64,000 nucleotides of DNA from Deltaproteobacteria bacterium. GTDB lineage: Bacteria > Myxococcota_A > UBA9160 > UBA4427. A model generated the notes under the pieces. That model searched no databases. It saw only the letters and a program-made list of their open reading frames with translations, and was not told the origin of the DNA. This document shows, one piece after another, positions 2,631-64,000 of the stretch (positions are counted from its first letter, which is position 1; every line of letters starts with the position of its first letter). Where the stretch lies: NCBI GenBank assembly GCA_002691205.1, contig NZHD01000020.1:92995-156994 (forward strand). Reading direction: 5' to 3'. The position numbers and the translations under genes are program-made.

Positions 2631-3713
2631 TTACGCCTCAAACAAGTCAAGCTGAGCGTCTTTTTCCCCTGAAATCGCAACCAACCCGGCTGCCACCACC
2701 CCGAGCGAACGCACTTCCGTGACCAGACTCACTTCACACCGATCCAACAAAGACTGGACCGCTCGCTCAAGGTCAAAGCGACTCCCGATAGCGACCGTGA
2801 GAGTTTCGCTCCGAGTCAAACGTGTTTCATCCACGAGCCCCACACGCAGCGCCAAGCGACTTGTTTTCAAACCATGCCGAGCCAGACTTCCTTCAAGGGC
2901 CGTAGATAATCGGGCCAGACAGGCATCCAATGGGCTCCGATCTCGACTGGGGAGAGACAAAGTCTCCTTACGGCTAATCGTCTTCGGGAACCGCGTCGCA
3001 CGAATTACCGAACGATCCCGCCCAGCAGCCATTTCAAGAATAGCCAAACCGTGATTTCCCAACTCCTGCTCCACCACTTTCGTATCGAGTTGCAAAATTT
3101 GTCCCACCGTACGCGCGCCCATCTCTGCCAATCGACTCGCAGTCTTTACGCCAACCCGCGGCAAACGCGAAAGCGAGAGTGGCCCAAGAAAAGCCGCAAC
3201 ATCTGGAGCCTCAACCCATCCAATGCCCTGCTCGCCCGACTCCTCAGCTGCCAAACGTGCCAACATCTTTGAGGGAGCAATCCCGAGCTGAAGCGGAAGC
3301 CCCACCTCCGACCAAGTCAGCCGTACTACTTCTTCTGCCCAACTTGACACATCATGGGCTCGGACCGGGAGCGAACTATACACTTCGCCCAAACTCCCTA
3401 GTTCTAACTTTTGAAGATTTTCCCTCAGACAGCGCACGAGTACACTCGAAACTTCACGATAAAGATCCATACGAGTTGGGCGCACAATCGCATCGGGGCA
3501 AAGCTCAGCCGCCTCGAGCATCGTCATTCCTACGGAAACGCCGACATCTTGCGCTTGCCGGCTCGCCGATTGCACTTTCCCTTTTTTGCCTGGGTCACCT
3601 CCAACGAGGATAGGCTGGCCCACCAGTTTATCATCGGCGCGACGTTCCACCTCGGCATAGAAGTTAGAAACACCCGCAAAAACAATTCTCGCCCTCGACC
3701 CAACGGCTTTCAT
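2631..3713 (-). CDS. DinB/Y-family DNA polymerase homologue lacking catalytic acidic residues (probable pseudo-polymerase)
   Basis: FYAxVE, GIAPSKMLARLA, LPRVGVKTASRL, little-finger region and C-terminal QLDLF are present, but DMD is GVS and SLDE is SLGE. Confidence 0.85.
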   Translation of the reverse strand: MKAVGSRARIVFAGVSNFYAEVERRADDKLVGQPILVGGDPGKKGKVQSASRQAQDVGVSVGMTMLEAAELCPDAIVRPTRMDLYREVSSVLVRCLRENLQKLELGSLGEVYSSLPVRAHDVSSWAEEVVRLTWSEVGLPLQLGIAPSKMLARLAAEESGEQGIGWVEAPDVAAFLGPLSLSRLPRVGVKTASRLAEMGARTVGQILQLDTKVVEQELGNHGLAILEMAAGRDRSVIRATRFPKTISRKETLSLPSRDRSPLDACLARLSTALEGSLARHGLKTSRLALRVGLVDETRLTRSETLTVAIGSRFDLERAVQSLLDRCEVSLVTEVRSLGVVAAGLVAISGEKDAQLDLFEA

Positions 3714-49904: not shown

Positions 49905-50021
49905 GGCCGGAATAGTACACAGAACAATCGCGGGAGGAAACCATCGCCTCTTATTTTTCCAAAACATCTCGATTCACCGAGATCAATTCACACGGAGCAT
50001 AGGCACGCTAGTCTTGGAGGT

Positions 50022-50120
50022 GGCGGGGTTTCCGCGGCTGGTGCCCGGCCTCGACTTCAAATCGAGTGTGGAGCGTGTCGCCACGTTCTAGGCGGGTTCG
50101 ATTCCCGTCCCTCGCCGCCA
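50022..50120 (+). tRNA. selC: tRNA-Sec(UCA)
   Basis: CTCGA-CTTCAAA-TCGAG anticodon arm, TGGT D-loop with long D-stem, 9-bp variable arm, TTCGATT T-loop, G discriminator, CCA; 99 nt. Confidence 0.92.
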
Positions 50121-50557
50121 ACAAAAGCTTCAAAAAAAATCGCCTGGGCTTTCCCCTCGATGATCAAAGTGCCATTGGGGCAAAAAAAACCCAGCTGAAA
50201 TCTCATTCAGGGTAAGCTCACCCACCCTTCAACACAGTGAAGCCTATCTGGCCCTATAAAATCCATCGTCGCAAGTCTCTGCGGATAGTGCCTTTGAACT
50301 TTATGATTTGGTTACGCCCTCAAGTCAAAACCTGCCGGAACCTCAACTCCGGCCTAATCTGGCTCAAACGCAATACAGACAGCTTTCACCTGTGTGGTAT
50401 CCTATCAGGTGAGTGATGTGGAAACAGCGGAAGAAACGCCTTTCAAGACCCCAGCCCGCTACGACCCCAGGTCGTAGCCGCACGGGCCTCCCCCGCTCTG
50501 AGCCATCCACATCCTCCATTCACCCTGGGCGCCCTGCGTCCAACATGGAGGAACACT

Positions 50558-50902
50558 ATGACCGAATCTGCCCGAATCCAAACCCATTGGCGGAATCTGC
50601 CCGCCGACGAACTCACAAATCAATACCTCGCCCGTCGCTGTGATCAACTCACTGCGGAATTTCCCGAGGCTGATAGCTTTGAAATCAGCCTCCAAGTCGA
50701 GGGGAAGCAAGTCGAGGGCCACGCACATGTTGATGGAAAGCGTACGCGTCTCGCGGCGCACACCCGCGGCGCGTTGAGTTCGCGGCAGGCGGCGGAGCGT
50801 GTTCTCGACAAGCTTGAACGTGAAATGAGAAAAGAACATGACAAACGAATTTTCAGCGCCCGTAGAAAGGCACAGAAATCGCAAGTCAAACGCCAAGAAT
50901 AA
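50558..50902 (+). CDS. HPF/RaiA-like ribosome hibernation factor (divergent)
   Basis: GGAGG RBS; beta-alpha-beta-beta-beta-alpha pattern ending AAERVLDKLEREMRKEHDK with a basic tail. Confidence 0.65.
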   Translation: MTESARIQTHWRNLPADELTNQYLARRCDQLTAEFPEADSFEISLQVEGKQVEGHAHVDGKRTRLAAHTRGALSSRQAAERVLDKLEREMRKEHDKRIFSARRKAQKSQVKRQE

Positions 50903-50972
50903 TTCTTTAGTCGGAAACGAAACCGACGGCTGCTCGAGTACCCTGGACCCCTTTGAGGCACGAGAGAGGGGT

Positions 50973-53771
50973 TCAGGCTCGAAGGGCTTCCGCCGTGTAG
51001 GAGACCTCGCTCATCATGAGATCCTCAGGGGGCCCCTCCGCCACAATTTCACCTCCCCCCGGCCCACCTTCAGGTCCGACATCAATCACCCAATCAGCGC
51101 GACGAATCAGGTCCAGATTGTGCTCCACCACAATCACGCTCCCACCCTGGTCGATCAGTTCAGCGAGACAACCGAGCAAAATCTGAACATCCGATGCATG
51201 CAGGCCCGTCGTCGGTTCATCAAAGACATAAAGGCGCCCCTTCGCGGACTCTGTGAGAGCCAGAGCCAATCGAATTCGCTGATGTTCGCCCCCCGACAGC
51301 GTAGATAGCGGCTGCCCCAAAGTGAGGTAGCTCAGACCCACTTGTGACAAAGGAGCCAGCTTCGATTCGATTCGAGTATCTCCTGCAAAGAACTCGAGGG
51401 CCTCGCGAATCGTCATCTCTAAAACATCGACGACCGAGCGGCCATCTAACTTGATACTCAAAACTTCCTTGCGGTAGCGCCTCCCTCCGCACGCATCACA
51501 GGGCATGTGAACATTGTCCAGAAACTGCATATCCACCACCACCTCGCCTGAACCTTCGCAACTATCACAGCGCCCTCCCGGCACATTGAATGAGAACCAA
51601 CCCGGGCCAACCCCCAATGCGCGTGCCTGACGTGTTGCAGCGAAGCGTTGACGTATGCCGTCAAAGGCCTTGCAGACCGTCGCCGGATTAGATCGAGCGC
51701 TTCGAACCGCCGGAGTCTGATCCACTACCACAACCCCCGACACCTTCTCAGCACCCTCAATTCGATCACACTCACCAGGAGGATCTCGACGTCCATTCTG
51801 GTCAGCCAAATTTCCAACCAAGACCGATTGAATCAGAGTCGACTTCCCGGCGCCTGAAACACCTGTGACCGCCACCATGCAGTGCAAGGGAATATTTACC
51901 GTCACTGATTTCAGGTTGTTCGCCCGAGCCCCCACAATTCGCAGGCTGTCCATTTTTTCAAGAACTCCCGCCGAACGAGGTTTTCCACTGGACTCAAATT
52001 CACCGCGAAGAAGCTTTCCTGTCTCCGAAGAAGGGTGACCTCTTACCGCGTCAAGCGACCCTTCAACGAGAAGTTGTCCTCCCAGCCTCCCCGCACCCGG
52101 ACCTAGATCGATCACATGATCGGCCGCTGCTAGAATTTCAACCGCATGCTCAACAACCACCACTGTGTTTCCCTGATCCCGGATGGCCATCAAAACGTCG
52201 ATGAGACGACGCATGTCTCGCGAATGCAATCCCACGGAGGGTTCATCTAAGACGTACAAAGAGGCCGTCAATCCACCGCCAAGTGCAGTGGCCAATTGAA
52301 TCCTCTGGGCTTCCCCTCCTGAAAGTGTTCGCATAGGTCGATCAAGTGAGATGTACCCCAAGCCCACAGCATCCAGCGTCGCCACGCGCGTCTGTAACAT
52401 TTCCGGGAGTCGGCCTGCAATCTCTTGCTCTTTTTCTGTGAGTTCCAGCGCATCGATCCATGCCGCAAGAGAAGCCACATCAAAGGTACTGAGCTCGCCC
52501 ACATGAACCCCTGCAACCTCAATGGATCGCGCCTCAGGACAAAGTCGCGACCCCTCACACTCATCGCATAAAATATAGGTTCGATAGCGCGCAATCAGAA
52601 CACGGCTTTGCACCTTGTACCGACGTCCTTCAAGCCAATCAAAAAAGCCCTGCACGCCGTACCAGCCCTCTTCATCGCCCTCCAGAACCCAGGCCCTGTC
52701 AGCCTCCTCAAGTTCAGACCAAGGCAATTCAACGGGGACACCTCGGATCTCACAGGCTGAGAGAAGGTCGCGCTCTAGGCTCCGGCCCATCGGGGTTGCA
52801 AAGGGGGCGATCGCATGATCTTTCAAACTCACATCCTGATCGGGTACCACGCGCCCCCAGTCGATCGTCGCTTGACGGCCGAACCCTTGGCAGGCCTCAC
52901 AAGCCCCCAACGGACTGTTAAACGAAAGCCGAGCAGGCTCCGGATTTGGGAAACGACGCCCACACCCCTGACATGCGAACCCTTGACGAAAGAAGGCTAA
53001 ATCGTTCTCGCCCTCACCGTGCAGAGCCACAATCAATTCGCCCTCTCCGCGCATAAAGGCGGCCGCAATCGCCTCCGAAAGGCGTGTTAATTCAGAATCC
53101 CTGGACTCCTCTGAATCTCCGTGTGTGGCCCGAATCGCCAATCGATCGATCAACAGGAAGCCCTTTGAAACCAAAGACTCAAGTACGACGATCGGTGACT
53201 CCATCCAGTCCACTACGGCCCCAGATGCATCGACCATCCGAGTAAATCCCTCAGAACAGTAACGATCTCTCAAATCCTGAAGATTCTCGCCCGTCGCTTC
53301 CGGAAGGCGAACGCCGATTAAAATTCGCTGCCCCTTAAATCGCTCTAAAATACGCTGGGCGATATCCGGAACCGTTCCTCTCTCAACCAAAAGGTCGCAG
53401 TCCGGACAACGCGTACGCCCCAGTTTCGCAAAGAAGAGACGGAGAGCATCCAAGACCTCACTGGCCGACCCGACTGTGCTGCGCGCCTGAGTGACACGGT
53501 TCACCTGCTCTATCGCAATGGCTGGAGGCAAACTCGAAATTCGGTCCACCGCCGGCCGAGGCAACCTCTCGAGAAATTGTCGAGCATACGTGGAGAGCGA
53601 ACTGACGTAGCGTCGTTGCCCCTCCGCATAAAGGGTATCGAAGGCCAACGTTGATTTGCCCGAGCCCGAAACCCCCGTAATCACTGTCAGAGATCTCAAC
53701 GGGATACGGCAGTCCACGCCCTTTAAATTGTGAGAACGGGCGTTCTCAATGAGAATCTCAGTCTGTGCCAT
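50973..53771 (-). CDS. uvrA: Excinuclease ABC subunit A
   Basis: HNLK, GVSGSGKS, LAFDTLYAEGQRRY, Zn fingers, LSGGE x2, DEPSVGLH, DEPTTGLH. Confidence 0.95.
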   Translation of the reverse strand: MAQTEILIENARSHNLKGVDCRIPLRSLTVITGVSGSGKSTLAFDTLYAEGQRRYVSSLSTYARQFLERLPRPAVDRISSLPPAIAIEQVNRVTQARSTVGSASEVLDALRLFFAKLGRTRCPDCDLLVERGTVPDIAQRILERFKGQRILIGVRLPEATGENLQDLRDRYCSEGFTRMVDASGAVVDWMESPIVVLESLVSKGFLLIDRLAIRATHGDSEESRDSELTRLSEAIAAAFMRGEGELIVALHGEGENDLAFFRQGFACQGCGRRFPNPEPARLSFNSPLGACEACQGFGRQATIDWGRVVPDQDVSLKDHAIAPFATPMGRSLERDLLSACEIRGVPVELPWSELEEADRAWVLEGDEEGWYGVQGFFDWLEGRRYKVQSRVLIARYRTYILCDECEGSRLCPEARSIEVAGVHVGELSTFDVASLAAWIDALELTEKEQEIAGRLPEMLQTRVATLDAVGLGYISLDRPMRTLSGGEAQRIQLATALGGGLTASLYVLDEPSVGLHSRDMRRLIDVLMAIRDQGNTVVVVEHAVEILAAADHVIDLGPGAGRLGGQLLVEGSLDAVRGHPSSETGKLLRGEFESSGKPRSAGVLEKMDSLRIVGARANNLKSVTVNIPLHCMVAVTGVSGAGKSTLIQSVLVGNLADQNGRRDPPGECDRIEGAEKVSGVVVVDQTPAVRSARSNPATVCKAFDGIRQRFAATRQARALGVGPGWFSFNVPGGRCDSCEGSGEVVVDMQFLDNVHMPCDACGGRRYRKEVLSIKLDGRSVVDVLEMTIREALEFFAGDTRIESKLAPLSQVGLSYLTLGQPLSTLSGGEHQRIRLALALTESAKGRLYVFDEPTTGLHASDVQILLGCLAELIDQGGSVIVVEHNLDLIRRADWVIDVGPEGGPGGGEIVAEGPPEDLMMSEVSYTAEALRA

Positions 53772-53802
53772 ACCCTAGAGCCTACACGCCCTGAAAAAGC
53801 CC

Positions 53803-54153
53803 TCAATGCTCAGCGTCGCCCACACGTGCTTGTCGACGCGCCGTCTCCGAGTAGATCGTCTTGCCGGCTTTTTCGGCCGCTTCGGCCAATTTAAGCCATC
53901 GGTCCGATGAAAAATCTCGGCCCAGAGCCTGCCCCACTTGCTTAAGAAGAAAGGCGTCTCCTTCGCCCACCGCTTGTTCAGCAAGGGCCTCAAGTCGGTC
54001 GGTGGCGTTCGCTTTTGAGAGGAAAACAATTCCCTCCTGAATTCGACCGGCTTCCATGTAGGCGTCTGCGAAAGCAAGACTCTCTGCATCGCTCATTTCT
54101 TGCTCAATAAAGTCTCTTCGCTTGAGGGAATTGGGGATCACTGTTTGTTTCAT
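53803..54153 (-). CDS. Helical hypothetical protein
   Basis: GAGG RBS before ATG 54153; lies between moeZ and uvrA; no family recognised. Confidence 0.6.
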   Translation of the reverse strand: MKQTVIPNSLKRRDFIEQEMSDAESLAFADAYMEAGRIQEGIVFLSKANATDRLEALAEQAVGEGDAFLLKQVGQALGRDFSSDRWLKLAEAAEKAGKTIYSETARRQARVGDAEH

Positions 54154-54225
54154 TCTGCGCCTCGTCTCCTCACCTTGTTTTAGGGCCTTGTACAACTCGC
54201 ATCTCAGGCCAATCGCCCGGGGTCC

Positions 54226-55389
54226 TTAATATCTAGGCACCTGATCATCCACAGTCAAAGACCAGGCTTCGATGCCTCCATCGAGATTTTTAACTTGCTC
54301 AAAGCCCGCTTCCATCAGCCTTTCGCAGACGCCCTGACTTCGCCCTCCTTTGTGGCAATGCACAATGATGGGCTTGTGCTTCCAAGCCTCCAAGCCAACT
54401 AGTCCGGCTTCAAAGTCAGAAAGGGGAATCCACTGAGCCCCCTCTATGCGAGCACAGGCGACTTCGTCGGCTTCGCGAACGTCGACCAAGAGCAACTCTT
54501 CCCCACGCTCCATCTGAGCATGCACTTCATCCGCCGAAACCGTTTCCACCCTCTCGTGCCCCGCGGAAGGAACCGCGCCACAGAAGTCGAGATAGTCAAT
54601 CAATTCAGTCACGGTGGGGTGCTCACCGCAGACCGGACAGTCCGGATCCTTTTTGAGCTGAAACTCAGTCCATTCCATGGCCAGGGCATCATAAATCAAC
54701 AAACGTCCCACCAAAGAACGACCCAATCCTGTGAGTAATTTAATAGTTTCTGTCGCCTGAACCGTCGCAATCAAACCTGGCAGAACGCCCAAGACGCCTC
54801 CTTCCGCGCAGGAGGGAACAGACCCTGGCGGGGGCGGTTCGGGGAATAAGCATCGATAACACGGCCCCGAGCGAGCATCAAAAACACTCGCCTGGCCATC
54901 AAAACGAAAAATCGAACCATAGACATTGGGCTTGCCGAGAAGAACACACGCGTCGTTAGAAAGGTAACGCGTCGGAAAATTGTCGGTTCCATCGACAATC
55001 ACATCGTAGTTCTTAAAGATTTCCAGAGCATTTCCTGAATCCAGACGCAGCTTATGCACCTCAACTTGGATGTCAGGATTCAGAGCCCGTACGCGCTCTT
55101 GGGCCACGTCCACTTTCGCTCGACCGATATCGGCCGTGCTGTAAAGAATCTGGCGCTGAAGATTAGAGAGGTCGACGACATCGTCATCCAGCAATCCGAG
55201 ACGCCCAACTCCGGCCGCTGCAAGGTAAAGAGCCAAAGGGCACCCGAGCCCTCCAGCGCCGATCAACAAAACGCTGGCCTCAAGCAAACGCTCTTGGCCC
55301 TCGATTCCCATCTCAGGGAGACTGAGGTGCCTGCGGTAACGTTCAAACTGGTCGGGACGAAGTAGACCTTTACGAGCACCCATAGGCAT
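54226..55389 (-). CDS. moeZ: MoeB/ThiF adenylyltransferase fused to rhodanese (MoeZ-like)
   Basis: RYRRH, GAGGLG, SNLQRQ, DGTDNF, CYRC, CAEGG, CPVC, rhodanese CHKGGRS. Confidence 0.92.
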   Translation of the reverse strand: MPMGARKGLLRPDQFERYRRHLSLPEMGIEGQERLLEASVLLIGAGGLGCPLALYLAAAGVGRLGLLDDDVVDLSNLQRQILYSTADIGRAKVDVAQERVRALNPDIQVEVHKLRLDSGNALEIFKNYDVIVDGTDNFPTRYLSNDACVLLGKPNVYGSIFRFDGQASVFDARSGPCYRCLFPEPPPPGSVPSCAEGGVLGVLPGLIATVQATETIKLLTGLGRSLVGRLLIYDALAMEWTEFQLKKDPDCPVCGEHPTVTELIDYLDFCGAVPSAGHERVETVSADEVHAQMERGEELLLVDVREADEVACARIEGAQWIPLSDFEAGLVGLEAWKHKPIIVHCHKGGRSQGVCERLMEAGFEQVKNLDGGIEAWSLTVDDQVPRY

Positions 55390-55495
55390 ACCCTATCCAA
55401 ACCTCACCCATTGGGCGAGGAGTCACCGTTGGCCTCTCTGCCCCATCAGGCATATCCCATTCATCCCGACAAAAGGAGTTGGGAGGGCGGGTCAA

Positions 55496-55816
55496 TCAAT
55501 CCTCTTCTTCTTTCGGCGGCAAGACCTTAATCTTGTAAGCCTTTCGGGGCTTGTCGATAAACTTCCAAGAGACCGTGACCCAATCCTTCTTTTTGAGTTC
55601 TTTCCACTCCGTCTTGCCCTCGCCCGAAACTTCGGAGGGATCGGCTGGCACAAACGACACTTTGTCACCCATGCGGTTGTCGACGATCATCCGCTTCTTG
55701 CTTACTCGATCAATCCGTCCCGTAAATTCTCTCATCTGCGCTTGAACGAGGGCCGGTCCCAAAAGAAGACTGACCACAATGAGCGAAAGACCCAGAACAC
55801 GACTCAACTTCATCAT
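55496..55816 (-). CDS. Secreted Lys-rich hypothetical protein (possible small OB-fold)
   Basis: AGGTG RBS; signal peptide ending VQA; beta-rich mature region. Confidence 0.65.
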   Translation of the reverse strand: MMKLSRVLGLSLIVVSLLLGPALVQAQMREFTGRIDRVSKKRMIVDNRMGDKVSFVPADPSEVSGEGKTEWKELKKKDWVTVSWKFIDKPRKAYKIKVLPPKEEED

Positions 55817-55915
55817 TCTCACCTTTTTCATTAAAATTCTCTCTTCTCTCCGAGCCCTCCTGAAGGCTCGTAGCACCTGTCCGAGGGCTTGGGAGACTCA
55901 GCCTACGGTAAACTG

Positions 55916-56002
55916 TGGTGCCGGAGGCGGGATTCGAACCCGCACGGCCTTGCGACCGGGGGATTTTGAGTCCCCTGCGTATACCAGTTTCGCCACTCCG
56001 GC
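55916..56002 (-). tRNA. tRNA-Leu(CAA)
   Basis: Reverse complement GCCGGAG...GGGGA-CTCAAAA-TCCCC...GTTCGAATC...CTCCGGC-ACCA. Confidence 0.95.
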
Positions 56003-56068
56003 AGCGGGCTGCATCATAACGCACGACCGATTTGTTTTCCGGCTAGGACGCTTTCAAAAAATGCCCCT

Positions 56069-56098
56069 TTGACAAGACCCCATGCGGCGGGTTAGCCT
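56069..56098 (+). promoter_or_regulatory. Sigma70 promoter for tRNA-Ala
   Basis: TTGACA-N18-TAGCCT, 13 nt before the tRNA. Confidence 0.6.
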
Positions 56099-56111
56099 GC
56101 CCATCCCGTGT

Positions 56112-56187
56112 GGGGCCGTAGCTCAGTTGGGAGAGTGCCTGAATGGCATTCAGGAGGTCGCCGGTTCGATCCCGGCCGGCTCCACCA
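56112..56187 (+). tRNA. tRNA-Ala(GGC)
   Basis: GGGGCCG/CGGCTCC acceptor stem with G3:U70, CCTGA-ATGGCAT-TCAGG anticodon arm, CCA; 76 nt. Confidence 0.96.
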
Positions 56188-56432
56188 GGGACCGCTTCTT
56201 CAAGGGCGTGCAGAAAACACAATCGAAGCCGCCCACCGAAAGGCCTCTGGCTTTTCCCCGCGGGTCCCCAGCCCTGCCCCAACCGCTCATGCTCGGCACT
56301 GCATGGCCCCTCAAGTACGCCACGAGCCCCGCTCAACTCTGGATTCAGAACTTTTGCCATGAGCTGGAAGCCGCCCCGATCCAGATGCCCTGGAACATGC
56401 ATTTTGAAAGACCCGACGCCCTGTCACGCCCG

Positions 56433-56446
56433 TAGAACGTGTTCTA
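56433..56446. promoter_or_regulatory. KstR-type operator within a putative sigma70 promoter
   Basis: TAGAACGTGTTCTA fits TnnAACnnGTTnnA; it lies between CTGTCA (56421-56426) and TAATAT (56445-56450). Confidence 0.7.
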
Positions 56447-56529
56447 ATATCGGCGCCGTTCGGCTCGGCCCTTTGGCGCCGGCGCCGCTTTCATCGACGG
56501 ACCACACGACCTTGAAGCAGGAGTTCCTC

Positions 56530-57510
56530 ATGAGCCATCCGACCCCCGAAACGGACGTCATCCTCTCAGCACCTCACGTGCTTGAGTATGATTATCGCCG
56601 TTCCCTAGGTCCCGTTCTCAGCCATTTTTTTTCGGCGCTCCGAGAAGGCCAAATACACGGGGTCAAGACAAAAAGCGGCCGAGTGTTAGTTCCGCCGGCC
56701 GAGTACGACCCCGAAACCGGCGAATCTACAACCGATGAATTCGTCGCGGTAGGGCCAGGAGGCGTTGTCGAAAGCTGGGCCTGGGTGGGAACGCCGCGAA
56801 AGAACCATCCCATCGCTCACCCCTTTGCGTTTGCTCTCATTAAGCTTGATGGAGCGGACACGGCCCTTCTTCACGCAGTGGATACACGAGACGAAAGTCT
56901 GATGGCCTCCGGCATGCGAGTCACGCCGCGCTGGGCCGCTACGCCCGAAGGAGGCATCACAGACCTCTGCTGTTTCGTCCCTGAAGACCAAGGCGTACAA
57001 ACCGTCGAGGCTCCCGATGAAGTCTCAGAACCCACTCAGAGCATCGTCACCCCAGTGAATGTCGAATACGTCTATTCTCCCGGGAAGGCGGCCACTCGAT
57101 ACCTCCAAGGCCTGAAACAGGGCAAGTTTTTGGGACAGGCCTCGGATAGCTCCGGGCTCGTCTACATCCCTCCACGCGGCGCCTGTCCCCGTGACGGCGT
57201 CCCCACCAGTCGAGAGGTCGAGGTCTCGGGCAAAGGCACCGTCGTCACCCTGACCATCGTTCGCGTGCCCTCTGCGAACATTACAGTCGACCTTCCTTAC
57301 TGCACGGCCAATATTCTTTTAGACGGGGCCGACATCAGCTTTACGGGCCTTCTTCAAGAGTGCCCCTTAGAGGATGTCCGAATCGGAATGCGAGTCGAAG
57401 CGGTTTGGGTCGATTCCTCTGAATGGGATTACAGCTCCGAGAACATCAAATACTTTAGACCTATCGATGAACCCGATCTGCCCTTCTCAGAAATCAAGGA
57501 GTACTGCTGA
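56530..57510 (+). CDS. Tandem DUF35 OB-fold protein (Rv3521-like aldolase partner)
   Basis: Two repeats of VPP....P..G, G.G.V..W, A.I.LDGAD, GMRV...W; start after AGGAG. Confidence 0.85.
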   Translation: MSHPTPETDVILSAPHVLEYDYRRSLGPVLSHFFSALREGQIHGVKTKSGRVLVPPAEYDPETGESTTDEFVAVGPGGVVESWAWVGTPRKNHPIAHPFAFALIKLDGADTALLHAVDTRDESLMASGMRVTPRWAATPEGGITDLCCFVPEDQGVQTVEAPDEVSEPTQSIVTPVNVEYVYSPGKAATRYLQGLKQGKFLGQASDSSGLVYIPPRGACPRDGVPTSREVEVSGKGTVVTLTIVRVPSANITVDLPYCTANILLDGADISFTGLLQECPLEDVRIGMRVEAVWVDSSEWDYSSENIKYFRPIDEPDLPFSEIKEYC

Positions 57511-58565
57511 TGCGTGATGTAGCCATTGTCTCCTATGCCCAGAGCCCTTCGGTTCGCACGCAGCAAGACGAGAACGAAGTCGAAATGTTGATGCCTTTGA
57601 TCAAGGAGGCGGTGGAAGGCTCGGGGATTGCCAAGCAAGATATTGGATTCACTTGCTCCGGCAGCACCGACTACCTTTCAGGTCAGTCCTTTGCCTTTGT
57701 GATGGCCGTCGATGCCGTCGGAGCATGGCCGCCGATCAACGAAAGCCACGTTGAGATGGATGGCGCGTGGGCGCTGTATGAGGCCTGGATTAAAATCCAA
57801 TGCGGCGAAGCCGACTCTGCTCTCATTTTTAGTTTTGGTCGGTCTTCCATGGGCGAAACCGCGGAAACCCTCGGACTTCAGCTCGACCCCTACACCCTCG
57901 CGCCGCTTAAGGCCGACGCGATCAGCTTGGCTGCACTTCAAGCCCGTGCCGGACTGGATGCAGGCAAATGGACTGAGCGCGAGATGGCCGAAATCGCGGT
58001 TCGGTGCCGGGCTCAAGCCAAAGACAATCCGGACGCGCAGCTCTCAGGGGACTTTGAAACCGACCAACTTTTAGCCGACCCATACCTGGTCTCGCCTCTG
58101 CGCAAGCACGACTGTCCGCCCGTTTCCGATGGTGCGGCCGTCATGGTGATCGCCGCAGAAGAAGTTGCTCGAAAGGGGCCTAATCCGCCCGTCTGGATCC
58201 GCGGATTGGAGCATCGTCTGGACTCCCACCAGCCTGGAGGACGAGATCTGACCCTCTCCCCTTCGACTTCTCTCGCGGCCCAGGCCGCCGGAGTGGCTGA
58301 TGGCCCCATCGATTTTGCCGAACTGCACGCGCCGTTCACACATCAAGAAGTCATCTTGCGAGAAGCCCTGGGGCTTGGGCCTGATGTTCTCATCAATCCA
58401 TCTGGAGGCCCACTCAGTGGGAATCCAATCATGGTGGCCGGTCTTGCTCGGCTCGGTGAGTCCGCACGCCGCCTTTGGGCAGGTCATGGAAAACGAGCAG
58501 TCGCCCACGCCACCTCGGGCCCTTGTTTGCAGCAGAACTTGGTCTGCGTCCTGGAGGGAGAATAG
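57510..58565 (+). CDS. Thiolase-like lipid-transfer protein (Ltp4-like)
   Basis: MRDVAIVS, SGSTDYLSG, ESHVEMDGAWALYEAW, DGAA, NPSGG, HATSGPCLQQNLV. Confidence 0.85.
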   Translation: MRDVAIVSYAQSPSVRTQQDENEVEMLMPLIKEAVEGSGIAKQDIGFTCSGSTDYLSGQSFAFVMAVDAVGAWPPINESHVEMDGAWALYEAWIKIQCGEADSALIFSFGRSSMGETAETLGLQLDPYTLAPLKADAISLAALQARAGLDAGKWTEREMAEIAVRCRAQAKDNPDAQLSGDFETDQLLADPYLVSPLRKHDCPPVSDGAAVMVIAAEEVARKGPNPPVWIRGLEHRLDSHQPGGRDLTLSPSTSLAAQAAGVADGPIDFAELHAPFTHQEVILREALGLGPDVLINPSGGPLSGNPIMVAGLARLGESARRLWAGHGKRAVAHATSGPCLQQNLVCVLEGE

Positions 58566-58567
58566 AT

Positions 58568-59728
58568 ATGGCAGAACATGCAGCCGTGATTGGCATTGGC
58601 CAGACCGACTTTGACGCGAAACGCGTGGATGTCTCTCAAGTTGGCTTAATCCGCGAGGCCGCCTTACGGGCCCTAAAGGATGCTCAGCTAGAATGGAGTG
58701 ATATTGATGCCGTGGTGATCGGCAAGGCCCCGGACATGTTTGAAGGCGTCATGATGCCCGAACTCTTCTTGGCCGAAGCCCTGGGTTGCGTTGGCAAACC
58801 CATGCTCCGCGTCCACACCGCGGGCAGTGTCGGTGGATCCACCGCCATTGTCGCCGCCAGTCTGGTTCAGAGCGGGATCCACAAGCGGGTCTTGACGGTC
58901 TCCTATGAAAAGCAGAGCGAAAGCAATGCCATGTGGGCCCTCTCCATCAAGCTCCCCTTCTCACAAACGCTGGTCGCCGGGGCTGGAGGATTCTTTGCCC
59001 CGCTCATCCGTGGGTATATGGCGCGCTCTGGGGCGCCCGAAGACACCGGAATTCGCGTCGCACTCAAAGACCGTCTGAATGCGCTCAAGAACCCAGTGGC
59101 GCACCTGAAGCTCCCTGACGTCACTTTTGAAATGATCGCAAACTCGCCCATGCTGTGGGATCCCATTCGCTATCTGGAAACCTGCCCGTCTTCAGACGGA
59201 GCCTGCGCTCTCATTATTGGCGACTCAGCAGCCGCGAAGCAGTCACGCAGCCATCCCCCCGCCTGGATTCACGCCACACAGATGAAGACCGAACCCACGA
59301 TGTTTGCCAAGCGCGACCAGGTCATGCCTCAGGCGGGACTTGACTGTTCGGCCGCCCTTTACAAAAAGGCAGGCATCACCGACCCACGCAAAGAGATCGA
59401 CTGCGCTGAGGTCTACGTTCCCTTTAGCTGGTTTGAACCCATGTGGATGGAAAACCTCCACTTCGCCCCGCCCGGCGAAGGCTGGCGCATGACCTACGAA
59501 GGAGCCACGGCCCTCGACGGAGACCTGCCCATCAACATGTCGGGCGGCGTTCTTTGCACGAATGCCATTGGCGCCTCGGGAATGGTTCGCTTTGCCGAAG
59601 CCGCCATGCAGGTGCGCGGTCAAGCGGGCGAGCATCAGATCGATGGGGCAAAAAAAGCCCTCGGTCATGCCTACGGTGGAGGATCACAATATTTCTCCAT
59701 GTGGATCGTCGGAGACCAACCGCTCTGA
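58568..59728 (+). CDS. Thiolase-like lipid-transfer protein (Ltp3-like)
   Basis: GKAPDMFEGVMMPE, HTAGSVGGST, TCPSSDGACA, YVPFSWFE, SGGVL, HAYGGGSQY. Confidence 0.88.
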   Translation: MAEHAAVIGIGQTDFDAKRVDVSQVGLIREAALRALKDAQLEWSDIDAVVIGKAPDMFEGVMMPELFLAEALGCVGKPMLRVHTAGSVGGSTAIVAASLVQSGIHKRVLTVSYEKQSESNAMWALSIKLPFSQTLVAGAGGFFAPLIRGYMARSGAPEDTGIRVALKDRLNALKNPVAHLKLPDVTFEMIANSPMLWDPIRYLETCPSSDGACALIIGDSAAAKQSRSHPPAWIHATQMKTEPTMFAKRDQVMPQAGLDCSAALYKKAGITDPRKEIDCAEVYVPFSWFEPMWMENLHFAPPGEGWRMTYEGATALDGDLPINMSGGVLCTNAIGASGMVRFAEAAMQVRGQAGEHQIDGAKKALGHAYGGGSQYFSMWIVGDQPL

Positions 59729-59767
59729 ACCAACTTTACTTTTCACCAATCCACCCGGAGACACCCT

Positions 59768-61315
59768 ATGGCTGAACTCGGCTTCTGGAACTTTGCATCA
59801 CAAAACCCCGAGCCATTGGCTCTCGTCGACCCGAACCTAAAGGAGTGGAGTCGAGGCGAGTTGCTGGCCGAGACCAACAAGATCGCCCATGGCCTTCGAA
59901 GCCTCGGGCTGACACGCGGCGATTGCGTGGCCATTGTGATGGAAAATTCAGCCGAGTTTTTTCAAATTTACTTGGCCGTGACACAAATCGGCCTTTACCT
60001 CACGCCCATTAACAATCATCTCACCGGGCCAGAGATTGCCTACATCATCAAGGACAGCGACGCGAAAGTCTTTTTCGGGTCGGCTCGTTTCAAGCCCGCT
60101 TGTGTCGCCGCGCGAGAAGAACTGGACTTCCCTGAGAGCCGTTCCTTCTCACTGGGCGCAGTGCCGGGATTCAGAGCCCTTGAAGAGCTCAAACACGGGC
60201 AGCCGGAAGGACTGCCCGAGGAGCGCTCGGCAGGTCAGGTCATGAACTACACCTCAGGCACGACGGGACGCCCCAAGGGTGTCCGGCGGCCGCTTGTAGA
60301 CATCTCCCCTGATCTCGTGGCCACGCTCACCACAGGCTTCTTGGGCATGTTTGGCGTTCAGCCTGAAGATGACAACGTCCACATCTGCGGCTCACCGCTC
60401 TACCATACGGCCGTCTTGATGTTCAGCGGCAGCTCCATGCACATGGGGCATACCGTGGTCCTCATGGAAAAATGGCTACCTGAAGAAATGCTGCGCTTGA
60501 TCGAGAAGTATCGCGTTACCCATAGCCACATGGTCCCTACCCAGTTTCATCGACTCCTTAAGCTCGATGAAAAGATTCGCAGCCAATACGACATGTCTTC
60601 GTTGCGCACAATGGTGCATGCCGCAGCGCCGTGCCCGATGGAAACCAAACGAAAAATGCTCGACTGGTGGGGGGATGCGATTTTTGAATATTACGCGGCC
60701 ACCGAAGGCGGCGGGACTCTGGTCACACCCCAAGAGTGGCGAAAATACCCAGGCACCGTCGGCAAAGCCTGGACGAACTCGGATATCAAAATTTATGATG
60801 AAGACGAAAACGAACTTGGCCCGAACCAAGTGGGCACCGTCTACATGCTCCTTGGACAAGCGGACTTTAAGTACAAAGATGCTGAGAAGAAAACCCGCGA
60901 CAATCGGATCGGCAATTACTTCACTGTGGGCGACGTCGGAGAACTTAACGACGAAGGCTACCTCTTCCTTCGAGACCGAAAGACGGACATGATCATCTCA
61001 GGCGGAGCCAATCTCTATCCCGCCGAAATCGAGTCCGAGCTAATCCAACACCCCAAAGTGGCCGACGTCGCCGTCTTTGGCATCCCCAACGACGATTGGG
61101 GAGAGGAAATCAAAGCGGTCATTCAACCCATGGACGGGGTCGAGGCCAACGAGAACCTCACCGACGAAATTTTCAGCTGGTGCGAATCCAGGCTCGCCAA
61201 AATGAAGACGCCCCGCTCCATCGACTACGTCGTTGAATTGCCCCGGGACCCCAATGGCAAGCTCTACAAACGAAAGCTGAGGGATCCCTACTGGGAAGGC
61301 CGAAGCCAGATTTAG
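59768..61315 (+). CDS. Acyl-CoA synthetase (FadD family)
   Basis: YTSGTTGRPKG, PLYH, EYYAATEG, GDVG, DRKTDMIISGG, GKLYKR. Confidence 0.92.
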   Translation: MAELGFWNFASQNPEPLALVDPNLKEWSRGELLAETNKIAHGLRSLGLTRGDCVAIVMENSAEFFQIYLAVTQIGLYLTPINNHLTGPEIAYIIKDSDAKVFFGSARFKPACVAAREELDFPESRSFSLGAVPGFRALEELKHGQPEGLPEERSAGQVMNYTSGTTGRPKGVRRPLVDISPDLVATLTTGFLGMFGVQPEDDNVHICGSPLYHTAVLMFSGSSMHMGHTVVLMEKWLPEEMLRLIEKYRVTHSHMVPTQFHRLLKLDEKIRSQYDMSSLRTMVHAAAPCPMETKRKMLDWWGDAIFEYYAATEGGGTLVTPQEWRKYPGTVGKAWTNSDIKIYDEDENELGPNQVGTVYMLLGQADFKYKDAEKKTRDNRIGNYFTVGDVGELNDEGYLFLRDRKTDMIISGGANLYPAEIESELIQHPKVADVAVFGIPNDDWGEEIKAVIQPMDGVEANENLTDEIFSWCESRLAKMKTPRSIDYVVELPRDPNGKLYKRKLRDPYWEGRSQI

Positions 61316-61391
61316 GAGCTCTCCCCCAAACTAGCTTTCTGACGAAGAGTCAAAACCCTCTAAGTTAGCTAAGGCCCCCAGGGACCCTATT

Positions 61392-61583
61392 TCAATCGAC
61401 GAGTTGGATAGCCTGGCGAGGGCAGAGTCGCTCGGCTTCTTGGGCTGTTTCCTTGAACTCGGCCGGGACCTCTTCCATTAGCACCGTCAACGTATCATCG
61501 TCTTCAACGCGAAAAATCTCTGGAGCCTGCTCCATACAAATCGCATTGGCCTCACAGAGATCGTAGTCAACGACTACCTTCAT
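61392..61583 (-). CDS. Ferredoxin, FdxD/3Fe-4S type
   Basis: VVD.D.CEANAIC...APEIF...CP.QAI; AAGGAG RBS. Confidence 0.9.
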   Translation of the reverse strand: MKVVVDYDLCEANAICMEQAPEIFRVEDDDTLTVLMEEVPAEFKETAQEAERLCPRQAIQLVD

Positions 61584-61735
61584 AACGTTCTCCTTAAAAG
61601 CGGCCCTCTAACCGGGCCTTTTCTTAAACAGCGTTGATGCTCCACCCCTTTTGGTGCGTCCTAGTCTAGGGCCAAACCTCCGGCCTTGCTCGACTTTCTG
61701 AAATTCAACAGAAAATCGAGACAGGAGGGCTTTGG

Positions 61736-62653
61736 CTAAGCGGGAGGAACAATAAAACTATCTCGAACAGGGTCTCGCTGAGCCAGCCAAGGAGTCAAGG
61801 CGTCATCGACATTCTCATACGTCCAAGATTCGGAGACCTCAAAATCAGACGCATAACCGGGTTTCTCTAGAACTCGAATTGAGCGCCCCCAGATCACATA
61901 CACATTCCCGGAGCTACGCTCCGACGCCGGCGAAGCCAAATAGCCCACAAGCGGCGCCACATGTTCGGGCGCAAACGTGTCAAACCCATGTTCGGGTTCT
62001 GCGAAAAAAGCCGCCGTGGGGCCGTCGGTGGTCATGCGCGTGCGCGCTCGAGGCATGATGGTATTCGCAGTCACGCCGTACCGCTCCAGCCCCTGGGCGG
62101 CGGCCCCCGTCAATGCAACGATTCCCGCCTTTGCAGCGGCATAATTCGGTTGACCCACTGAAGCAAAAATAAAAGCCTCAGAGGAGGTACTCACAATCCT
62201 CCCGTAGGTCGGGCTTCCCATGGATTTTGACTTATTGCGCCAATATTCTGCGGCGTGGCGCATGCCGACAAAATGGCCTTTGACATGAACTCGCATCACG
62301 TCGTCAAAATCTTCTTCTGTCATTGAAAAAAGCATCTTGTCCCGACAGAAGCCTGCATTGTTGACCAGGATATGAAAATCGCCCCACGTCTCCAGCGCTT
62401 TCTCAATCATAGCCTTCGACTCGTTCCAGTCGGCCGCGTCGCCGTGATGAGCCACGGCCTCTCCGCCCGCCGAGAGAATTTCCTCCACCACGGACTCAGC
62501 GCCGTCCGCACTCGCTCCTCGCCCGGCTCCATCTGTTCCTAGATCAGAAACAACCACTCGCGCACCTAAGCGAGCCAATTCCAAAGCCTCGACTCGCCCC
62601 AGTCCGCGGCCCGCCCCGGTCACTGCGGCCACGCGTCCCTCTAAAACCGTCAT
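61736..62653 (-). CDS. Short-chain dehydrogenase (Hsd4A-like / 3-oxoacyl reductase)
   Basis: TGAGRGLG, NNAG, SSEA, YAAAK, APEHVAPLV. Confidence 0.88.
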   Translation of the reverse strand: MTVLEGRVAAVTGAGRGLGRVEALELARLGARVVVSDLGTDGAGRGASADGAESVVEEILSAGGEAVAHHGDAADWNESKAMIEKALETWGDFHILVNNAGFCRDKMLFSMTEEDFDDVMRVHVKGHFVGMRHAAEYWRNKSKSMGSPTYGRIVSTSSEAFIFASVGQPNYAAAKAGIVALTGAAAQGLERYGVTANTIMPRARTRMTTDGPTAAFFAEPEHGFDTFAPEHVAPLVGYLASPASERSSGNVYVIWGRSIRVLEKPGYASDFEVSESWTYENVDDALTPWLAQRDPVRDSFIVPPA

Positions 62654-62704
62654 TCCGCCTCTCCTTCAAATTCTCAACAGTCGATCTCGCAATTCAACGC
62701 CAGA

Positions 62705-63874
62705 CTAACCTTGTCCGAGCACCATCCCGCTGGTCGGCACACCCACTCCGGCCGTCACGAGAACATGCTCATTTTTATCGGGCTGGCTTGAAGACGTGCC
62801 TCGAATCAAACGAACGCCTTCGTTGACGCCATTCATCCCGTGCAAGTAAGCCTCAGACAGTTGCCCACCATGCGTATTGGAAGGAAGCCTTCCGCCCAAA
62901 CGAAGATTTCCGTCACGAACGAAATCCTTAGCTCGCCCCTTCTCACAGAAACCAAAACTCTCCAATTGAAAAAGAACATTTGAGGAAAAAGCGTCGTACA
63001 TCACAGCGGCGTCCACATCATCGGGGCCAAGCCCTGAAATCGCCCAACACTGTTTGGCAACAAGATCCATCTCGGGCAAATCTGACAGACTGGGCCGATA
63101 AAAACTCGTCATGGACTCTTGGTCACCGGCTGCGCCTTGGGCCACCGCCCGAATCATGGCCGGAGCATGAGGCAGCTCGCGTGCCATCTCCGGGCTCACC
63201 ACCACACACGCCGCACCCCCATCTGTTTCCTGACAGCAGTCATATAAACGCAAAGGCTCCACGATCGGTCGCGCACTCTGATGCTCTTCAAAGGTCAGGG
63301 GCTTCTCGTAAAAAAACGCGCGAGGGTTTTTGACGGCATGATCTCTCTGGGAGAGGCAAACCTCAGCCAGATCCTCTCCCGTGCAGCCGTAGTCATGCAT
63401 GTAGCGCTGGGTATACATGGCCACCCAACTCGCGGGGGTCATTAAACCGGACGGCATATACCAACTCCAGTGAATCAGGTCGGACGTCGTGGGGCCTCCT
63501 GAAACACCTTCGCTGTAGCGGGAGCCTGAACGTCCATTCAGAGCTCGATAAACCACCACCGCCTTCGCACTTCCCGTGGCGACGGCCATCGCCGCTTGAT
63601 GCATGACACCAATCGCCGCTCCACCCCCATGAGGCGTTCGACTAAAAAATGTCAGATCCTTCACGCCCACGGCCCGGGCCACCTCTATTTCATCACTGTT
63701 GTCCATGGTAAATGTCGTCATGCCGTCGATATCGGCCGGTGTCAAACCGGCATCACTAATCGCTGCAGCACAGGCTTCGCTAGCCAAGGAAAGCTCCGAC
63801 CGACCCGAATTTTTTGAGTATTCGGTTTCTCCAATTCCAACGATGGCCGCTTGGTCCTTCAGCGTCGTCGGCAT
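62705..63874 (-). CDS. ltp2: Ltp2-like steroid side-chain aldolase (thiolase fold)
   Basis: AAIVGIGET..SK.SGRSEL, HGGGAA, DCCQETDGG, YDAF, NTHGGQL.EAY.HG, TAGVG.PTSG. Confidence 0.85.
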   Translation of the reverse strand: MPTTLKDQAAIVGIGETEYSKNSGRSELSLASEACAAAISDAGLTPADIDGMTTFTMDNSDEIEVARAVGVKDLTFFSRTPHGGGAAIGVMHQAAMAVATGSAKAVVVYRALNGRSGSRYSEGVSGGPTTSDLIHWSWYMPSGLMTPASWVAMYTQRYMHDYGCTGEDLAEVCLSQRDHAVKNPRAFFYEKPLTFEEHQSARPIVEPLRLYDCCQETDGGAACVVVSPEMARELPHAPAMIRAVAQGAAGDQESMTSFYRPSLSDLPEMDLVAKQCWAISGLGPDDVDAAVMYDAFSSNVLFQLESFGFCEKGRAKDFVRDGNLRLGGRLPSNTHGGQLSEAYLHGMNGVNEGVRLIRGTSSSQPDKNEHVLVTAGVGVPTSGMVLGQG

Positions 63875-63875
63875 C

Positions 63876-64000
63876 TTAATTCGCCTCCCTGGGCAAGATC
63901 AAGCCCACCGTTCCCGTCACATGATTCCCCCATGCATTCTTGCCAGTCACCTCAACGGTCACGGAGCCTTCCTGATCATTTTTCTCAATGACGGCCCCGG
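63876..64000 (-). CDS. C-terminus of a MaoC-like hydratase (ChsH1-like), partial
   Basis: Hand translation GAVIEKNDQEGSVTVEVTGKNAWGNHVTGTVGLILPREAN*; stop 1 nt before the ltp2 start, as in the chsH1-ltp2 order. Confidence 0.65.
   Translation of the reverse strand, partial: GAVIEKNDQEGSVTVEVTGKNAWGNHVTGTVGLILPREAN

Follow-up and report, generated by a model that had tools for sequence, protein, structure and literature searches.

A tRNA-Ala(GGC) gene (nt 56112–56187, + strand) marks the upstream limit of a 342-nt promoter region (nt 56188–56529) in the window, i.e. the whole stretch of 64,000 nucleotides that was analysed, and four genes follow on the same strand. The first (nt 56530–57510) codes for a 326-aa Rv3521-like protein having two DUF35/OB_ChsH2_C domains (Pfam PF01796, matched in two stretches). 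Next are the genes for two thiolase-fold proteins, one ltp4-like (nt 57510–58565; NCBIfam PRK07937, 535 bits versus a cut-off of 419) and one ltp3-like (nt 58568–59728, with the ATG at nt 58568 behind GGAGGGAG; NCBIfam PRK08313, 677 bits versus a cut-off of 514), and then the gene for a FadD-type acyl-CoA ligase (nt 59768–61315), recognized by the Pfam AMP-binding model and having FadD4 as the nearest NCBIfam model (493 bits, below the cut-off). The Rv3521/ltp4/ltp3-like operon of the original prediction was therefore confirmed, with the ligase gene at its end.

On the opposite strand, the window contains the genes for a 63-aa single-cluster ferredoxin (nt 61392–61583; Fer4_15 and Fer4_13), for an SDR of the PRK07792/PRK07791 type (nt 61736–62653; Hsd4A/ChsB1-like, with 358 bits for the first model and 343 for the second, short of their cut-offs of 414 and 373) and for an ltp2-like aldolase (nt 62705–63874; PRK07855, 609 bits versus a cut-off of 469). 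Beyond the end of the window, a chsH1-like (MaoC) gene on the same strand as ltp2 (L001:11871–12293) and a chsH2-like gene (L001:12319–13296), coding for a FAS1-like dehydratase region (hotdog), a zinc ribbon and a DUF35 domain, are found together with a gene for a kstR-like TetR protein of 199 aa (minus strand, G000:C68:158320–158919, corresponding to L001:13321–13920). Gene order and strands indicate two convergent operons, DUF35x2-ltp4-ltp3-fadD on one side and kstR-chsH2-chsH1-ltp2-SDR-ferredoxin on the other, the ferredoxin gene being the last of the latter. Orthologues of the two-DUF35 protein were found in 62 out of 201 genomes of the phylum; here, as in about half of the relatives (loci L110–L114 were looked at), a single fused gene encodes it, and in many genomes of the same family and of the same order two adjacent genes, of approximately 160 aa each, do so.

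The 342-nt gap between the tRNA-Ala gene and the ATG at nt 56530 contains a perfect 14-bp palindrome, TAGAACGTGTTCTA (nt 56433–56446; reverse complement TAGAACACGTTCTA), in which the arms TAGAAC and GTTCTA are separated by GT. This sequence is identical to the palindrome of the mycobacterial kstR promoter, TAGAAC(N2)GTTCTA (Kendall 2007, PMC1995591), and both its sequence and its conservation before orthologous operons (see below) qualify it as a predicted KstR-type operator box. Its end lies 83 nt before the ATG, which is preceded, at a distance of 6 nt, by the Shine-Dalgarno sequence AGGAG (nt 56519–56523, + strand). A −35-like hexamer, CTGTCA (nt 56421–56426, + strand), and a −10-like hexamer, TAATAT (nt 56445–56450, + strand), the latter having its first two bases in common with the box, are spaced by 18 nt. 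The palindrome with 6-bp arms between these two hexamers and its distance from the operon start, both claimed in the original prediction, were found exactly as described, and the box showed zero variants in four independent metagenome runs.

A consensus sigma-70 scan of nt 56150–56600 called neither a promoter nor a terminator, and the CTGTCA/TAATAT pair scores 8 out of 12 against the sigma-70 consensus (4 out of 6 for CTGTCA alone). Despite this weak score, the −35/−10 reading is supported by the alignment of the upstream regions of the focal genome and five relatives, where the only conserved blocks are (C/T)TGTC(A), the box and TA(A/G)(T/G)AT. The first block is kept 6–7 nt upstream of the box in five of the six regions, while the last overlaps the box end at the same position in three loci of the same family (AATAC is present in L090). 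It is on this conservation that both hexamers are assigned as putative promoter elements. The resulting geometry (hexamer, box and overlapping −10) matches that of the mycobacterial kstR promoter, where the box likewise overlaps the −10 region (Kendall 2007, PMC1995591).

For the loose pattern TnnAACnnGTTnnA, two occurrences in the window compare with an expectation of 0.54, and no enrichment was observed genome-wide, with 56 occurrences versus about 48 expected in the 4.56-Mb genome. The caveat made at the outset, that the loose consensus should occur about once per 65 kb by chance, was right, and the mere occurrence of the loose motif is uninformative. Conservation was followed with a strict form of the box, defined as T[AG][AG]AAC(GT/AC/AT)GTT[CT][CT]A. 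A second box-like sequence, TCAAACGTGTTTCA, is present in the window at nt 2816–2829 with a PWM score of 19.3, above that of the focal site; it falls inside a DinB-like ORF (nt 2631–3713, minus strand), about 190 nt before the stop codon, and may be either a chance match or an internal site.

The TetR protein, encoded 9.5 kb from the palindrome by the first gene of the convergent operon, has KstR (NF033703) as its best NCBIfam model, matched over the full length with 106.2 bits (runner-up 46 bits; the Bacillus FadR model gave 36 bits). Two Pfam domains were recognized, PF00440 (55.9 bits) and the KstR-type C-terminal domain PF17925 (39.2 bits versus a cut-off of 26.5), and the same two models are matched by a fragment of Mycobacterium tuberculosis KstR, with PF17925 at 132 bits. 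In the PDB sequence search the best match was again M. tuberculosis KstR (E 7.5e-20, residues 6–197 versus 19–199), to which the protein is 28% identical, with a nearly identical recognition helix, reading VALGTLYRRF here and VAVGTLYRYF in the mycobacterial protein. The helix-turn-helix is invariant in 17 aligned homologues, whose overall identity is only 57–84%. When the AlphaFold model (pLDDT 89) was searched with Foldseek, the 16 best fold matches were all M. tuberculosis KstR chains (TM up to 0.87/0.93), the first being the DNA-bound KstR 5fmp (TM 0.85/0.93, rmsd 1.5 Å, 28% identity); the ranking continues with the Rhodococcus protein 3bjb and then drops to TM 0.66, the value of Thermus FadR bound to lauroyl-CoA (rmsd 5.7 Å). 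Reciprocally, when the genome was searched by tblastn with the fragment of M. tuberculosis KstR, the TetR gene was the best hit, at 9e-17. A second match (E 4.8e-5) covered the N-terminus only, and by this search no other of the 33 TetR proteins encoded in the genome resembles KstR. Since 106.2 bits is below the NF033703 equivalog cut-off of 280, the protein belongs to the KstR-type subfamily as a distant relative rather than a close orthologue. Of the KstR orthologue foreseen for this genome, what was found is a KstR-like TetR, so identified by best model, PDB search, fold and reciprocal hit, though below the equivalog level.

Two further boxes, TGAAACACGTTTCA and GGAAACACGTTTCA (L001:13931–13944 and L001:13953–13966), lie 22 bp apart in the promoter of kstR itself, 10 and 32 nt upstream of its ATG. 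Both are contained in a 157-nt region (L001:13921–14077; G000:C68:158920–159076) shared with a divergent gene for a DUF455 (ferritin-like) protein, which is followed by a gene for a 413-aa protein without family match. For comparison, 80 orthologous kstR loci were collected from distinct MAGs, covering 828 kb in total and coding for repressors 48–82% identical to the focal TetR. A box is present within 250 nt upstream of the TetR gene in 68 of them, with a second one in many, and strict box pairs are 22 bp apart in all 13 cases. The DUF455 gene is divergent from kstR at no more than 300 nt in 35 out of 75 assessable loci, and at no more than 2.5 kb in 10 more, an arrangement that would tie the divergon to the sterol regulon. 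Upstream of the focal kstR, the proximal box ends 10 nt before the ATG (L001:13918–13944) with no Shine-Dalgarno sequence visible, and the kstR mRNA may be leaderless or nearly so.

Around the 80 orthologous loci the strict box occurs 111 times versus 0.017 expected, an enrichment of several thousand-fold, and the sites other than those in kstR promoters precede pairs of large and small acyl-CoA dehydrogenases (ACADs) and DUF35-ltp4-ltp3 operons. Upstream of the orthologous DUF35-ltp4 operon it was found in 20 out of 29 other genomes, and these 29 loci have 23 strict sites in 110 kb versus 0.003 expected. The focal genome has four strict sites versus 0.53 expected, all on promoters flanking sterol-type beta-oxidation genes: the focal box before DUF35x2-ltp4-ltp3-fadD (window nt 56433–56446), one in the shared promoter of the kstR/DUF455 divergon (C68), one between a large/small ACAD pair and a TIGR03617 F420-type LLM oxidoreductase gene (C6:13509), and one before a second large/small ACAD pair (C96:16591). 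Near-strict sites are the second kstR box and a site between an NMO/FabK-like gene and a hydantoinase A/B pair (C21:5419). With a PWM built from the relatives, these six strict or near-strict sites are among the top eleven matches of the genome, the strongest exceptions being the coding site at window nt 2816 and further coding-region matches at 14–16.5 bits. The enrichment near steroid genes that had been anticipated for the motif is therefore true of the strict form, with four out of four genome sites at sterol-type promoters, and not of the loose one, which stays at chance level.

These data bear on the possibility that the palindrome is a chance match or a relic, unbound in vivo, or is bound by another of the 33 TetR proteins. 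Such an explanation could draw on the chance frequency of the loose consensus, on the equally good PWM match inside the coding region at nt 2816 and on the symmetric TAGAAC form being a minority type in the lineage. Conservation of the box contradicts it, as in other genera the site keeps its place in the promoter while the surrounding sequence is not conserved, and its strict form is several thousand-fold enriched around orthologues; moreover, no other TetR of the genome resembles KstR, the next tblastn match being the N-terminal one already mentioned. We regard it as very improbable.

The half-sites differ between promoters of the repressor and of its putative targets, with 124 TGAAAC and 13 TAGAAC in the former versus 40 and 64 in the latter (Fisher p 5e-18). 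In line with this, the kstR promoter of the focal genome uses TGAAAC half-sites, whereas the focal box is of the symmetric TAGAAC form. Counted by box (L005–L114 and the genome sites), 78% of the kstR-proximal ones are TGAAAC and 58% of those on enzyme promoters are TAGAAC, mostly as TAGAAC/TGAAAC hybrids. The hybrid sites and the shared conservation support the idea that one protein would bind both box types. The boxes on the repressor's own promoter and on those of the two ACAD pairs, the F420-type oxidoreductase and the NMO/hydantoinase pair are of the same type as the focal one and would belong to one regulon. At the level of the phylum the repressor is present in 62 out of 201 sampled genomes; repressor and operon occur together in 55, often on the same contig or adjacent, each of them occurs without the other in 7, and both are missing from 132 (odds ratio 148, uncorrected for phylogeny).

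Taken with the promoter geometry, these results indicate that the palindrome is very probably the operator of the KstR-like TetR whose gene belongs to this cluster and lies 9.5 kb downstream. The observation was confirmed, and its interpretation, i.e. KstR-like regulation outside Actinomycetota, is supported computationally by the repressor match, the conserved strict box and a contig that is not chimeric (see below). By homology with the mycobacterial system, a repressor dimer on the box would occlude the −10 region and block RNA polymerase. A FadD-type ligase, for which the operon's own ligase is a candidate, would convert a partly degraded sterol side chain to its CoA thioester, and binding of the latter to the C-terminal pocket would release the repressor, as in mycobacteria. 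The freed operon, with its homologues of ltp3/ltp4 and of their DUF35 partner, would then act on sterol side chains. The mechanism thus proposed, a TetR repressor on a promoter, is in itself ordinary.

The regulated set, comprising ChsH1/ChsH2, Ltp2, Ltp3/Ltp4, heteromeric ACADs and the Hsd4A-like SDR, is the characteristic set for sterol side chains, and genes for ring opening are also present in the genome. They form a cluster (G000:C39:10114–16309; L115:2115–8310) in which hsaA (464 bits versus a cut-off of 450, i.e. at equivalog level), a kstD-like gene (526 bits, below the cut-off) and an LLM oxidoreductase gene are divergent from a gene for a kshA-like Rieske oxygenase (KshA_C, 231 bits) and an SDR gene. 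Between the two groups, the promoter shows no more than a degenerate half box (TGATTCACGTTTCA), with no inverted repeat found, so that the regulon may be narrower than in mycobacteria. The same intergenic region contains TGATTCACGTTTCAGTCTGGA, of which 16 identical bases (CACGTTTCAGTCTGGA) are common with a kstR-promoter box and its flank. A second KshA_C match, in C34, adjoins a different TetR gene and has no box. As to the substrate, Ltp3/Ltp4 are required for C24-branched sterol side chains in Rhodococcus, and algal sterols of this kind would suit a planktonic host; by analogy, the operon may act on sterol side chains, possibly those of C24-branched algal sterols.

A general fatty-acid regulon of the PsrA or FadR type, responding to ordinary long-chain acyl-CoAs and controlling generic beta-oxidation with no sterol link, was also considered. 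PsrA-type repressors bind short AAAC..GTTT-type palindromes, and the box TGAAAC-N2-GTTTCA of the repressor's own promoter resembles the PsrA consensus, (G/C)AAAC-N2-4-GTTT(G/C). Many of the regulated genes code for acyl-CoA dehydrogenases, ligases and thiolase-fold proteins, the next fold neighbour past KstR and 3bjb is the lauroyl-CoA-bound Thermus FadR, and KstR itself has been described as a lipid-degradation regulator (Kendall 2007, PMC1995591). However, no PsrA model or structure is among the matches listed, and FadR comes far behind KstR in the fold comparison (TM 0.66 and rmsd 5.7 Å versus 0.85 and 1.5 Å). The targets are sterol-specific, from the ChsH1/ChsH2 MaoC-DUF35 hydratase to Ltp2, Ltp3/Ltp4, the ACAD pairs and the Hsd4A-like SDR, and the genome also has the hsaA, kstD-like and kshA-like genes described above. 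KstR being a much closer relative and the targets being sterol-specific, a fatty-acid regulon is unlikely.

With regard to the host, it is a diderm lineage of Myxococcota, uncultured, widespread and marine. Genes for the type II secretion proteins GspD, GspE and GspF are on the same 164-kb contig, and the closest named relatives of UvrA are from Myxococcota MAGs (74% identity). Marine or aquatic metagenomes contain the stretch (window nt 50000–64000) in at least 20 runs, under nine study codes from 2014 to 2025, and the 80 orthologous loci are mostly labelled as Myxococcota, Myxococcales or Deltaproteobacteria, with the same synteny recurring. Several MAGs (L007, L013, L017, L023–L025, L038, L039, L077 and others) are instead labelled as Spirochaetaceae/Spirochaetales, and one as Nitrosopumilus; on a Myxococcota-type cluster, such names suggest mislabelling or mis-binning, and one Spirochaetaceae/Spirochaetales-labelled isolate is named HK-STAS-MYXO-51.

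The cluster might also have been of actinobacterial origin and attached to a Gram-negative contig through an assembly or binning error. Its ltp2, ltp3 and ltp4 proteins exceed the cut-offs of PRK-derived NCBIfam models, whose names correspond to mycobacterial genes; it begins directly after two tRNA genes and shows a slight rise in G+C, from 0.54–0.56 in the neighbouring windows to 0.58–0.59. Against this, the contig also bears the T2SS secretin genes and the Myxococcota-like uvrA, the region from uvrA to ltp2 is covered evenly by short contigs of four independent metagenome runs, mostly at 99% identity or higher, the synteny recurs in the 80 MAG loci and the estimated contamination of the genome is 0.48%. 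A chimera with actinobacterial DNA, named beforehand as what would overturn the prediction, was not borne out and is excluded for practical purposes, while the Gram-negative nature of the host, until then only apparent, was confirmed by the contig genes, the UvrA relatives and the independent metagenomes.

Compared with known systems, KstR of mycobacteria (Rv3574/MSMEG_6042; PDB 3mnl, 5cw8, 5fmp, 5ua1) has likewise the TetR fold and the PF17925 C-terminal domain, and in Mycobacterium and Rhodococcus it uses the same 14-bp box TnnAACnnGTTnnA overlapping the −10 region. The two repressors are further alike in self-regulation from a divergent promoter (predicted here), in having two boxes on some promoters and in the targets Rv3521-ltp4-ltp3, chsH2-chsH1-ltp2, heteromeric ACADs and F420-type LLM oxidoreductase. 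Unlike M. tuberculosis KstR, the focal TetR, 28% identical to it and below the NCBI equivalog cut-off, belongs to a diderm host, its promoter favours TGAAAC half-sites in place of the TAGAAC palindrome of the mycobacterial kstR promoter, and its gene heads the chsH2-chsH1-ltp2 operon and faces the DUF455 gene pair, whereas mycobacterial kstR faces fadE34. The regulon looks small here, with five promoter regions and six boxes, while in M. tuberculosis 16 further intergenic motif sites have been reported (Kendall 2007, PMC1995591) and 74 genes are assigned to the regulon (2019 review). KstR2 (Rv3557c), the second TetR regulator of cholesterol catabolism, which controls C/D-ring genes, is also a TetR repressor of steroid genes responsive to a CoA thioester, but its structures 4w97 and 4w1u match the focal TetR only in the N-terminal HTH (E about 1e-4). 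The PsrA/FadR-type repressors, TetR proteins which respond to acyl-CoA and control beta-oxidation genes, have a much weaker similarity of sequence and fold, and regulons without the ChsH/Ltp2/Ltp3/Ltp4 set.

KstR has been treated so far as an actinobacterial regulator. None of the papers covered by the literature search connects KstR with Myxococcota, Deltaproteobacteria or Gammaproteobacteria in a relevant manner. Two large surveys located aerobic steroid catabolism in Actinobacteria and in Alpha-, Beta- and Gammaproteobacteria, and in no other group (Bergstrand 2016, PMC4810484; Holert 2018, PMC5790920). Both the sterol gene set and its control code appear to extend to a second phylum for which steroid degradation is not on record, in a large and uncultured radiation of Myxococcota. 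What is added here is a repressor with structural and reciprocal support, an 80-locus footprint with 22-bp tandem boxes, the half-site classes and the DUF455 link. The box together with the TetR gene provides a simple sequence marker for sterol-catabolic regulons in MAGs, and a participation of myxobacteria in marine sterol turnover is suggested. A KstR so divergent (28% identity with the same operator) also lends itself to studies of how specificity for operator and ligand is maintained.

A broader and tentative reading, to which we give rather less than even credit, is that the control by KstR box and repressor is ancient and resident in a widespread, sterol-degrading radiation of marine and soil Myxococcota, and that three points would be novel. 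The TGAAAC and TAGAAC half-sites could confer different affinities and an ordered de-repression. DUF455 (a ferritin-like di-iron protein) and its 413-aa partner, which in roughly half of the lineages have the operator region in common with kstR, would be undescribed members of the sterol regulon, possibly acting as a non-P450 sterol oxygenase. In the plankton, the pathway would serve to degrade C24-branched algal sterols. If this reading were true, Myxococcota would be a third phylum-level group of aerobic steroid degraders.

In three metatranscriptome runs from the same samples none of the stretch was found. A role of DUF455 as a missing C26 hydroxylase is unneeded in view of the 23 cytochrome P450 genes of the genome, and was set aside as a low-probability idea. 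That number is high for 4.56 Mb, and in the focal genome no P450 gene was found adjoining a strict box. Finally, a GDSL-type lipase/acylhydrolase gene (G000:C96:16717–17592; L003) is located directly upstream of the boxed ACAD pair of C96, and might code for a sterol-ester hydrolase.
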